NCBI GenBank assembly: GCA_023435925.1 | Contig: JAEZLF010000063.1 | Coordinates: 496 to 64,495 of the forward strand | DNA: 64,000 nucleotides | Origin: Bacillota bacterium | GTDB lineage: Bacteria; Bacillota; Clostridia; Acetivibrionales; DTU013 | Direction: 5' to 3' | In this document: one piece after another, positions 61,141 through 64,000 of the stretch | Numbering within the stretch: the stretch's first letter is position 1 | Layout: each line of letters begins with the position of its first letter | Program-made: the position numbers and the translations under genes | Notes under the pieces: generated by a model | Seen by the model: only the letters and a program-made list of their open reading frames with translations | The model's database searches: none | Told to the model about the DNA's origin: nothing

Positions 61141-61497
61141 ATGTGTTGTACAAGGATTTTTGCCGATGTTATCTTGGCAAATTTATTTGGAAGTGATCGT
61201 TTCGTCTCCTTTGATCCGATTTCCATGGAGGACATCAAGAACTTTTGCTCGTACCTGGACAATTTTCTTCCAGGTTTTATATTTTTTGAAAACTCCGAAG
61301 AGGATATGAAGGAAGTTGCAAGGAAGTATCCTCAATTCTATCAATTCGCAAATGGTAGGATATATCCAATGGAATATATGCCAATACGTACTAATTTTAA
61401 TACAGCTTATCGCGGGGAGATAGCAAACATCATCGAAGAAGCGGCAGATAGATTTATGGAATCCCAAACAAGACTTGTATCTTGCCACACTGCCTAG
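61141..61497 (+). CDS. hypothetical protein
   Basis: 118 aa, GGGAGG RBS, no recognisable motif. Confidence 0.35.
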   Translation: MCCTRIFADVILANLFGSDRFVSFDPISMEDIKNFCSYLDNFLPGFIFFENSEEDMKEVARKYPQFYQFANGRIYPMEYMPIRTNFNTAYRGEIANIIEEAADRFMESQTRLVSCHTA

Positions 61498-61650: not shown

Positions 61651-64000
61651 ATGAAAAAGATTAATGACGATTGGACAAAAACCATTCTAATCCGTGATAC
61701 AGTACACGGTTATATAAAGATTCCGAAGGTGATCGTAGAAGACATTATTGACACCTGCTGTTTCCAGAGGCTTAAGGATATAGAACAGACAGGTATGAGG
61801 GTACTTTACCCTACTGCTTCCCATGACCGTTTTACCCATTCGCTTGGAGTATACCATCTTGGAGTACTAGCCTTTGAGAAGTTCAGGGATAACGTTTACA
61901 ATTTTGATAATCACAGTATTTACAATAAAGTGTCTCCCGAAGCCAACCCTGACTTAGCTTCCATTAAATGGGATAAGTGGGGGCTGCTTTTCTCATTAGC
62001 CTGTTTGCTGCATGATTGTGGACATTCACCATTTTCCCATACACTTGAATTCCTATATGATATGGATTTTGATACTGATCCCGAAGAAGATTATGAATGG
62101 AATAAGAAGGTCCTTGAATCAGGTAAAAGCACTATTGATCCCTTAAAAGCAAGAGTAAACCGTAAATTGTGTAAAATTTTAAAATCGGGGGATAAAAGAA
62201 GCTTTGAGGATGATCTCTACTCCAAAGCGGAAAATAAGTATAAAGGAATCCCTCATGAACGAATGAGTGCTTATTATATATGCGCTTTATTCTACAAGGA
62301 GATTTATTGTCTTGTAAATTCCTTTATGGTAAACAAACATAAAAGCAGATTTGAAAACAATTATTATGACTCATCAGAGTGCCCTCCCGAAATAAGTAGT
62401 AAAGAGGAATTTTTCGATGATATGGAATTTATGTGCAGAATGGTTACTGGATGTAAATACGACCTAGATTTTTGCAATGATTATAGAAATTCCGAGAAAC
62501 ATGCTATGTGGGAATATGAGCTCCAGCTGCGAAACTGCGTTATAAAAATGCTAAACTCGGATCTTGACGTTGATAATCTCGACTATACCATGCGTGATGC
62601 TAAGGTTTCCGGGTATGAAAGCATTCAGGTTGATATAGAGCGCCTTCTATCGGCCTTTACAATAACAAGGGCTTACAGGATGAATGAATACGAACTGAAC
62701 AGTGATGATTTTAACTATACGGTATCTTGTGAAAAGTTTCATGGCATCATTGATGCGCACATTTACGGTCAATTTAATATGAAGACTGTTGAAAAAGCTA
62801 AAAATATAGAGGTTAACGGCAATGTATCACTGGTTGACGAGTATAAATATGATAATGTAAACCCTCGTAAATATTTCTACACAAACGCAGACTTTGCGGC
62901 GCAAGTAAAGTGCGGTAGTATTGAGATTACGCCGGGCAAAATCAATGATATAAGGCAGGAAAGCTGCAGCTTACACATCAAAGGGAGCTTAGACGGCACT
63001 TTTACCGGTATTATTTATGGATTTGATTCCAGTAAAGTCACAGCAAATCCGGATTGCTGTAAAGAGCTTATATATTTTGCCTTTAACAAAAGTTGTATCA
63101 GTGTATTAAAAAGCGCAGTCGATGCAAGAAATTATGAATATTTATGGATATATGCTCATCATATTGTCACATATCAAACCAGATTCCTTATTATTTATTT
63201 GCTTGACCAATATGCCAAATATATCAGAAAAACAGAAGGATTACCCTTGAAGGATATCATATATCACACTATTAATAGGGCATCTGATATATCGGCTGAT
63301 ACTATTAAAAGTGGTGAAACGGTAGATCATAGCACTTGTCACGAAGGATTAAGATATTTAGAAAAGTTGGAAAGGAATTATTCTTCGTTTAATGCCGAAA
63401 AAGACTGTGATAGTGAAATCAGCCAATATATAGAGAAATTTAAGAAATATAGTCTTCCTAATAATGAAAGAAAGGAACTGGCAGAGGTATATATCATTTC
63501 AGCAGCTATATTGTTGATATCTGAATTGAAGCCAGCATTTGAAGCCAACGCGGAGAGTACCTTCGAATATGTTAAAAAGCTTCTCGGTGTTGTTGAAAAA
63601 ATCATAGAAGATAGATATGACACGGACTCCCTTGATTTACTGGTTAAGGAAGCGAAACGGCTGATTAATTATATCCGGGAATATGCATGGATAGATATCG
63701 GGATAATGGTAAAAATACTTTTTAGCAAAAGCCCTCAAAATGCCATTGATGGAACCAACATTGATACCAATGATATGCAAAAGGAGAAATACCTTATTTC
63801 CGATCTCGATTTATTGGCTGATCTGAAAAAGGTCTTTTTAAAACTAGATAAAGATTCGAAAATGCAAGACAAGTATAATGAATTGTATTTAGCCTTGAAT
63901 GAACATTTTATGAGGGATTATCCATCAGCAGCCTGGAAAACCTATGCGGAATTCCGCCATCATTTCAGGAGCTGGACATACAAAGAAATTGAGCATTTAC
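61651..64000 (+). CDS. SAMHD1/dGTPase-like HD-domain dNTP triphosphohydrolase, oversized, 3'-partial (runs off window)
   Basis: This gene is not in the supplied ORF track. I read the frame from ATG 61651 (RBS GAGGAG) codon by codon to 64000 and found no stop, giving >783 aa. Motifs are IRDTVHGYI, FQRLKDIEQTG, HDRFTHSLGVYHL, LLHDCGHSPFSH and DVDNLDYTMRDAKVSG. Confidence 0.8.
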   Translation, partial: MKKINDDWTKTILIRDTVHGYIKIPKVIVEDIIDTCCFQRLKDIEQTGMRVLYPTASHDRFTHSLGVYHLGVLAFEKFRDNVYNFDNHSIYNKVSPEANPDLASIKWDKWGLLFSLACLLHDCGHSPFSHTLEFLYDMDFDTDPEEDYEWNKKVLESGKSTIDPLKARVNRKLCKILKSGDKRSFEDDLYSKAENKYKGIPHERMSAYYICALFYKEIYCLVNSFMVNKHKSRFENNYYDSSECPPEISSKEEFFDDMEFMCRMVTGCKYDLDFCNDYRNSEKHAMWEYELQLRNCVIKMLNSDLDVDNLDYTMRDAKVSGYESIQVDIERLLSAFTITRAYRMNEYELNSDDFNYTVSCEKFHGIIDAHIYGQFNMKTVEKAKNIEVNGNVSLVDEYKYDNVNPRKYFYTNADFAAQVKCGSIEITPGKINDIRQESCSLHIKGSLDGTFTGIIYGFDSSKVTANPDCCKELIYFAFNKSCISVLKSAVDARNYEYLWIYAHHIVTYQTRFLIIYLLDQYAKYIRKTEGLPLKDIIYHTINRASDISADTIKSGETVDHSTCHEGLRYLEKLERNYSSFNAEKDCDSEISQYIEKFKKYSLPNNERKELAEVYIISAAILLISELKPAFEANAESTFEYVKKLLGVVEKIIEDRYDTDSLDLLVKEAKRLINYIREYAWIDIGIMVKILFSKSPQNAIDGTNIDTNDMQKEKYLISDLDLLADLKKVFLKLDKDSKMQDKYNELYLALNEHFMRDYPSAAWKTYAEFRHHFRSWTYKEIEHL

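Follow-up and report, generated by a model that had tools for sequence, protein, structure and literature searches.

What does a bacterium use a SAMHD1-like HD phosphohydrolase for, when its reading frame already spans 783 codons at the point where the available sequence breaks off? The question is raised by the right-hand end of a stretch of 64,000 nucleotides (nt) from a Bacillota bacterium, positions 496 to 64,495 of contig JAEZLF010000063.1 (C273:496-64495), which we call the window and which belongs to a genome of 4.67 Mb in 319 contigs. RpoB places the host among uncultured Clostridia, at 87% identity to a metagenome-assembled genome (MAG) of Eubacteriales and 82% to one of an Acetivibrio sp. 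A sequence-only reading of the window had described the frame as an oversized deoxynucleoside triphosphate (dNTP) triphosphohydrolase, related to anti-phage dGTPases and carrying additional domains. Our analysis shows that the frame encodes the beginning of a protein of 1,684 amino acids (aa) with two HD domains of the SAMHD1 type and a C-terminal CYTH domain, and that a small gene, encoding a protein with an N-terminal Met-Cys, accompanies it. We interpret the locus as a two-gene, mobile nucleotide-depletion system, most likely serving in anti-phage defence. The activities, the defence role and the direction of regulation are what we infer, and we give this interpretation about an even chance of being correct.

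The length of the frame is not in doubt. Translation of the forward strand from the ATG at 61651 to position 64000 yields 783 residues with zero stops, as had been read codon by codon, and the frame had been absent from the open reading frame (ORF) track for want of a stop within the window, since it appears once open-ended frames are listed. The dNTPase HD motifs quoted for it are all in place: THSLGVYHL at aa 62-70, LLHDCGHSPFSH at aa 119-130 and NLDYTMRD at aa 309-316. When the frame is followed into the rest of the contig, its stop is reached at C273:67200 and the product is the 1,684-aa protein (P0002). Because three independent assemblies encode the same protein, identical letter for letter, the long frame is real and neither a frameshift nor an assembly artefact. 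Its ATG is preceded 8 nt upstream by an AGGAG ribosome-binding site. The sequence-only reading had passed over the conserved small gene that lies 154 nt upstream of the large one. The features of the locus are as follows.

61141..61497, + strand: small partner gene P0071, 118 aa, starting MCC, 154 nt upstream of the large gene
61651..64000, + strand: in-window part (aa 1-783) of the HD1-HD2-CYTH gene, the rest of which runs to C273:67200; whole gene at L002:6147-11201 in a second coordinate set
61651..62655, + strand: HD1 catalytic core, aa 1-335, SAMHD1/EF1143-like by conserved residues, profile and Foldseek
62656..63087, + strand: beta-rich insertion of HD1, aa 336-479, between two core helices in the AlphaFold2 model
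63088..63300, + strand: C-lobe helices of HD1, aa 480-550, with an ARNYEYxWIYxHH motif (E496, W499, Y501 and H503 invariant)
63301..63786, + strand: variable helical region, aa 551-712, poorly conserved, of varying length, predicted local distance difference test (pLDDT) score 35-70
63787..64000, + strand: start of the C-terminal module of the HD1 half, aa 713-927, which runs off the window (D718, W762 and K763 invariant)
Off the window, aa 928-945: disordered Gly/Lys linker
Off the window, L002:8982-10406: HD2, aa 946-1420, by PDB sequence matches
Off the window, L002:10434-11198: CYTH domain, aa 1430-1684, by Pfam score and YgiF profile match

The large protein thus consists of three parts, HD1 (aa 1-927), HD2 (aa 946-1420) and CYTH (aa 1430-1684). 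Pfam finds in it two HD stretches and a CYTH domain at aa 1444-1633 (PF01928, 29.4 bits, above the gathering threshold of 23.2), and no helicase or nucleic-acid-binding domain. The second HD domain is the more conventional one: aa 946-1400 match EF1143 of Enterococcus faecalis (PDB 2o6i) at 1e-43, the BT4208-like structure 2q14 at 3e-40 and human SAMHD1 at about 1e-21. HD1 is more divergent, with profile matches to EF1143 (2o6i) at 1e-28 and to SAMHD1 at about 1e-19, and Foldseek groups its model with SAMHD1 and EF1143 (E about 1e-7). The CYTH profile matches BH2851 (1.4e-9), Escherichia coli YgiF over the whole domain (3.6e-9) and SaTTM (2.8e-5); YgiF, an inorganic triphosphatase, is its top-scoring PDB match with a named activity, and a weak match carries the label 'putative adenylate cyclase' (2aca, E 0.007). 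The residues that follow the first HD motifs had been supposed to form regulatory or sensing modules. They amount instead to an enlarged HD module, a complete second dNTPase and a CYTH domain, so that sensors alone do not account for them.

The enlargement of HD1 was resolved in an AlphaFold2 model of aa 1-945, built on an alignment of 65 sequences (pLDDT 79, predicted template modelling score (pTM) 0.84). The strands of the beta-rich insertion, mostly above pLDDT 90, lie outside the aligned part of the EF1143 and SAMHD1 sequence matches, and aa 341-945 have no real match among PDB sequences, only spurious coiled-coil ones. Residues 480-550 finish the HD1 fold in the model; to judge from its motif, this block would be the counterpart of the AR..MY..VY block of HD2, and the ARNYEYxWIYxHH motif is common to a wider family of HD proteins of about 700 aa. 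The variable region at aa 551-712 is missing from such relatives (P0224, P0225 and P0234). The C-terminal module of the HD1 half combines helices with a small alpha/beta domain and is predicted at pLDDT above 90 over 713-790 and 832-927.

Conservation was assessed over 54 full-length homologues that are just 25-38% identical to P0002. Both HD metal tetrads are present in all 54: H63, H121, D122 and D308 in HD1, and H998, H1039, D1040 and D1155 in HD2. Within HD1 the same complete conservation extends to H58, R60, H125, H130, E133, H202 and E203, and in the late motif to D306, D311, Y312 and R315. The assignment to the SAMHD1-like HD enzymes was right, and no catalytic His or Asp is missing on alignment. 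The motifs in common with SAMHD1 and EF1143, HDxGHxPFSH and DxDxxDYxxR[DN], are likewise conserved. The His-Glu dyad, which is required in dNTPase (PMC12265719), and the histidines of HDxGHxPFSH are found in 54/54 homologues for HD1 (H125, H130, H202, E203) and, with H1043, H1048, H1060 and E1061 of HD2 included, in 52-54 of the 54. No less complete is the CYTH set of ExExK, R-x-R, K, R-x-E and E-x-E: E1445, E1447 and K1449 (as EIESK), the basic tunnel residues and the late E-x-E (R1509, R1511, K1522, R1537, E1539, R1586, E1630 and E1632) are invariant in every homologue.

The two HD domains differ at one informative position. In the motif D-x-D-[KR]-x-D-Y-x-x-R-D the basic residue, which we take to be the equivalent of SAMHD1 K312, a substrate-phosphate contact, is R1156 in HD2 of all 54 homologues. 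In HD1 the position is occupied by Ser (27), Asn (16), Gly (9) or Met (2) and is basic in 0/54, and the last Asp of the motif is Asn in 42 of the 54. Because its catalytic residues are invariant and the basic residue is gone, the metal centre of HD1 is, judged by its residues, probably intact and its substrate pocket altered. The Cys-containing insertion between the HD and DY..RD motifs, to which the sequence-only reading had drawn attention, does exist as a stretch; it is a variable, poorly conserved loop, and its cysteines are not retained (C244 in 1/54, C268 in 13/54, and C275 outside the five commonest residues of its column). A zinc or other metal cluster in this loop was ruled out because the cysteines vary among homologues.

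The small gene is the other half of the system. Its homologues adjoin the large gene in 14 of the 14 complete systems examined, either on the same strand or, in five of them, divergently transcribed, and the pairing persists at HD1 identities down to about 35%, the most divergent branches having the partners P0081 and P0080. Pairs of small proteins that are more divergent also tend to have more divergent HD1 partners (Mantel r = 0.80, p = 2e-4). With just 13 clusters in 5.8 billion proteins the family is very small, and nothing in it is invariant except the Met-Cys at the N-terminus, which is usually extended to Met-Cys-Cys. The protein has no Pfam match; AlphaFold2 models it with a pLDDT of 91.7 and a pTM of 0.85, in a fold recognisable neither as that of an antitoxin nor as a helix-turn-helix. 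A 101-aa ORF lies antisense to the small gene (window 61183-61488, - strand), and this frame is considered spurious because the protein on the + strand is conserved across 14 loci.

Homologues of the small gene also occur as orphans without any HD-CYTH gene (P0078 and P0079, at L180:7001-7336 and L184:4714-5040). Here they are surrounded by runs of small same-strand genes with Gp37/Gp68 (DUF5131), TraX, DUF488 and Phage_lysozyme2 proteins, and 150 phage records contain homologues of the DUF5131 neighbour, the nearest being from human faecal viromes. The best structural match of the small protein in BFVD is an uncharacterised 120-aa protein of Myoviridae (template modelling score 0.71, root-mean-square deviation 2.2 Å, E 2e-3), and it is to this match and the two orphan loci that the link of the small protein with phages is limited. 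As genes of phage-like or conjugative elements, the orphans are candidates for an anti-defence role. A more specific conjecture, which we consider unlikely, would be that the small protein is a dedicated inhibitor of the three-centre enzyme, that its N-terminal Cys, exposed after removal of the Met, plugs a metal site in the manner of TIMP, and that the mobile orphans are stolen inhibitors turned to anti-defence use. If this were true, the system would be a new kind of immunity that joins dNTP hydrolysis, destruction of inorganic triphosphate (PPPi) and a protein off-switch, with a natural counter-defence already in existence.

The large protein has 69 relatives in 5.8 billion proteins, none with a name beyond 'HD superfamily phosphohydrolase'. 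They are mostly fusions of 1,430-1,660 aa, and eleven are proteins of 930-1,000 aa that match the N-terminal half alone. In three cases the system is split: a gene for a 930-1,000-aa protein is followed, after a gap of 3-25 nt, by a gene for an HD+CYTH protein of 704-741 aa. The boundary between the split genes coincides with the linker between HD1 and HD2 of the fused protein, and the unit is therefore made of two modules, HD1-long and HD2-CYTH. When 1.84 billion representatives were searched exhaustively with a profile of aa 341-945, the part specific to HD1, 409 proteins were retrieved. About 25 of the 150 matches listed cover the whole region, and the others are mostly HD proteins of about 700 aa that have just the C-lobe and the C-terminal module in common with the HD1 half; in the species-representative genomes inspected, these shorter relatives are solitary and have no HD-CYTH neighbour.

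The full system is rare. Scan patterns drawn from the full-length alignment were generic HD motifs and retrieved ordinary single-HD Bacillota proteins of about 400 aa, so the HD1 half was used for scanning instead. It revealed the full system in about eight of 185,579 species-representative genomes, namely MAGs of Lachnospiraceae, Eubacterium, Oscillibacter and Clostridiaceae, a bacterial MAG without classification and a Spirochaetia bacterium. It is missing from all 40 genomes compared from the host's family or order, and IMG/VR holds no counterpart of the large protein apart from one single-HD relative. Homologues of similar length are thus not the common housekeeping enzymes that had been considered as a challenge to the sequence-only reading.

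Two-domain HD-CYTH proteins of about 680 aa, on the other hand, are fairly common in Clostridia (more than 100 clusters among the matches listed). Residues 946-1684 of the large protein are 33-39% identical, over 94-100% of the length, to more than 100 listed proteins of this type (about 680-720 aa), and the HD2-CYTH gene of the split systems is exactly such a gene. They are uncharacterised, annotated as 'CYTH domain-containing protein', and most occur without an HD1-long module and a Met-Cys partner. Some have another kind of HD gene at their side as the second one, which is Dgt-like in one example and SAMHD1-like in another. The first is a very common gut Firmicute contig (L186:6001-10234; P0193, 359 index blocks), where 32 nt separate a stand-alone HD-CYTH gene from a downstream HD gene of the Dgt type (477 aa, HD+HD_assoc). 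The product of the next gene has 233 aa, shows a GG...DxD pattern and matches nothing in Pfam; it and the Dgt-type protein may form a Clover-like pair of dGTPase and nucleotidyltransferase. The other is found on Sedimentibacter chromosomes (L189:3290-8043), where a 680-aa HD-CYTH gene is divergent to a 674-aa SAMHD1-like HD gene, with a HEPN_RiboL-PSP gene about 5 kb off. An HD-CYTH gene plus a second HD domain appears to be a recurring theme, of which the window would carry the fused and largest form.

Comparison with characterised enzymes delimits what is familiar in this protein and what is not. Every catalytic residue of EF1143 (PDB 2o6i, 3irh, 4lrl) and human SAMHD1 is kept in HD2, and HD1 resembles them by profile and fold. 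Those enzymes, however, have one HD domain in about 450-630 aa, whereas two stand here in tandem with a CYTH domain and without a SAM domain, and HD1 departs from them further by its 144-aa beta-rich insert, an extension of about 400 aa and the loss of the Lys/Arg of D-x-D-[KR]. The ExExK, R-x-R, K, R-x-E and E-x-E residues of YgiF (PDB 5a60) and SaTTM are found here too, but YgiF has a CHAD domain and SaTTM stands alone, whereas here the tunnel domain is fused to the enzyme that presumably produces its substrate. With the anti-phage dGTPase (Tal et al.) and with CloA/CloB of Clover the system shares an HD effector that degrades dNTPs and is located in defence islands. The effectors there are dGTPases of the Dgt type, and the kinship with them that the sequence-only reading had suggested did not hold: the large protein reaches 27 bits against a cut-off of 400 with the NCBIfam model antiphage_dGTPase (NF041026) and 40 against 152 bits with TIGR01353, which excludes it from the Dgt type, and belongs instead to the EF1143/SAMHD1 branch (COG1078). 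The partners differ as well, CloB being a nucleotidyltransferase, whereas the 118-aa protein has no nucleotidyltransferase motif and no Pfam or PDB fold match; nor was any nucleotidyltransferase Pfam match found among the neighbouring genes scanned.

The large gene has a G+C content of 36.1%, compared with 42.6% for the genome. A continuous stretch of 36-38% G+C extends over window 35500-64000 (about 36 kb of the contig up to its end) and takes in all of the window that is rich in defence genes; it is consistent with one or more acquired islands. Upstream of the large gene the window contains a REase-ARP gene, SF2 helicases, a UvrD-like helicase, several HD proteins and other defence candidates. 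A functional tie to the upstream trio of PNPOx, DinB-like and HD genes or to the UvrD genes was rejected, as none of them accompanies the homologues. The homologues elsewhere have defence-like neighbours: ATPases resembling Ppl (2e-34) and mad3, a PDC-S60-like nuclease, an NgoFVII-type restriction enzyme together with two Dcm methylases, a protein with a RES domain and insertion sequence (IS) elements. About 1.5 kb downstream of the large gene, past the end of C273 (L177:16511-17260), a rubrerythrin-like gene is followed by a gene for a 249-aa protein combining a PhdYeFM antitoxin with a Uma2 endonuclease. The host genome carries a second dNTPase-like HD ORF of 516 aa (G000:C122:4314-4712), which may be the housekeeping dNTPase.

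How could such a protein act? SAMHD1-type enzymes convert dNTPs into deoxynucleosides and PPPi (10.1101/2021.04.26.441389), and tunnel enzymes such as SaTTM favour PPPi about 19-fold over nucleoside triphosphates (NTPs; PMC8233210). HD2 would accordingly be expected to split dNTPs in this manner, and the fused YgiF-like CYTH tunnel would cleave the released PPPi in cis into pyrophosphate and phosphate, so that the product is gone and depletion becomes irreversible. HD1 might be a second SAMHD1-like centre, either with another nucleotide as its substrate or as a regulatory pseudo-dimer partner of HD2, and its beta-rich insert and C-terminal domain are candidate surfaces for sensing or assembly. 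The 118-aa Met-Cys protein would be the regulator of the enzyme, in the simplest case an inhibitor holding it inactive until infection. Precedent for such restraint is given by Clover, in which the dNTPase CloA is held back by its partner CloB (PMC12265719; 10.1101/2021.04.26.441389). Another is seen in mutants of phage T7 that escape dGTPase defence, which have changes in phage proteins that modify the host RNA polymerase (same sources). The HD-CYTH architecture itself was catalogued by Iyer and Aravind in 2002, as cited in PMC8233210. We found no bench study of HD-CYTH proteins in the literature and no link of CYTH to phage defence, and a dGTPase survey of 2026 reports fusions with CARD, death, TIR, NLR, SIR2 and SAM domains, CYTH not being among those. 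The tandem HD1 with its insert and C-terminal domain, the equivalence of split and fused forms, the Met-Cys partner and the mobile orphans appear undescribed.

Several observations weigh against a defence system of this kind. The large protein fails the curated models of anti-phage dGTPases, and PADLOC matches it weakly to dGTPase, with 44.8 bits along some 85 residues. The model of the small protein, a putative regulator, matches no PDB fold (best E 0.67), and no sequence relatives of it were found in GenBank phages or IMG/VR. The neighbours of the homologues vary by genome, and some have no part in defence (TonB receptors, a radical SAM gene). Finally, stand-alone HD-CYTH genes are fairly common in Clostridia (one of them occurs in 359 index blocks of the contigs searched), so that the core fusion could serve metabolism rather than immunity. 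Such an enzyme might balance or sanitise the dNTP pool, e.g. in stationary phase or during sporulation, and recycle the triphosphate; EF1143-type dNTPases and CYTH proteins of the YgiF/YjbK type are ordinary cellular enzymes, and CYTH was set at the interface of nucleotide and phosphate metabolism by Iyer and Aravind, in so far as PMC8233210 cites them. A housekeeping function nevertheless seems quite unlikely to us, given that the three-domain form is missing from 40 relatives, extremely rare and compositionally foreign, that its neighbours are different in every genome, and that the host has another dNTPase-like HD gene on C122. The pair might alternatively be a toxin-antitoxin or addiction module, in which the large enzyme is the toxin, the Met-Cys protein a labile antitoxin, and the two together stabilise a mobile island. 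A small upstream gene beside a large, potentially growth-arresting enzyme, co-inherited with it in a low-G+C island with IS elements nearby, fits this picture, and the orphan small genes on mobile elements resemble anti-addiction genes. Divergent transcription in five of 14 systems, however, is unusual for type II pairs, and a DNA-binding fold was not found for the small protein; addiction and abortive-infection defence, moreover, have so much overlap that sequence can hardly tell them apart. We regard this explanation as unlikely.

Other alternatives concern the chemistry of the domains. The CYTH domain might not clear a product at all, but serve as a sensor of PPPi, NTP or the 5'-triphosphate end of RNA, or as a CyaB-like cyclase that signals to the HD domains, since class IV adenylyl cyclases belong to the CYTH enzymes, as do RNA and thiamine triphosphatases (PMC8233210), and the weak match to 2aca points the same way. 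This we find unlikely: a domain that did no more than bind would hardly be expected to keep its whole two-metal catalytic set invariant, as this one does, the triphosphatases match better, and Pfam scans found no cyclic-nucleotide receptor domain in the locus. It is very improbable that the HD domains are Cas3-like nucleases which degrade phage nucleic acid rather than nucleotides. Cas3 HD models of PADLOC and NCBIfam match aa 80-283 weakly (E 7.5e-7 and 7e-5), but the SAMHD1 and EF1143 matches are far stronger (1e-43 and 1e-28), the motifs of these enzymes are conserved, and the helicase or nucleic-acid-binding domain of such a nuclease is lacking among the Pfam matches; with weak matches in PADLOC and NCBIfam only, the Cas3-like nuclease was set aside.

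Depletion of dNTPs is an antiviral strategy common to humans (SAMHD1) and bacteria (dGTPase, Clover), and it raises the questions of how toxic dNTPases are restrained and what becomes of the PPPi that they release. Both are addressed by a fusion of a presumed PPPi maker with a presumed PPPi destroyer that is accompanied by a small partner protein. In this system it would be testable whether depletion needs the removal of PPPi, which substrate bacterial CYTH triphosphatases have under physiological conditions, and whether a small protein can act as the off-switch of a SAMHD1-type enzyme. The orphan partner genes on mobile elements would, moreover, provide a ready candidate for an anti-defence protein.

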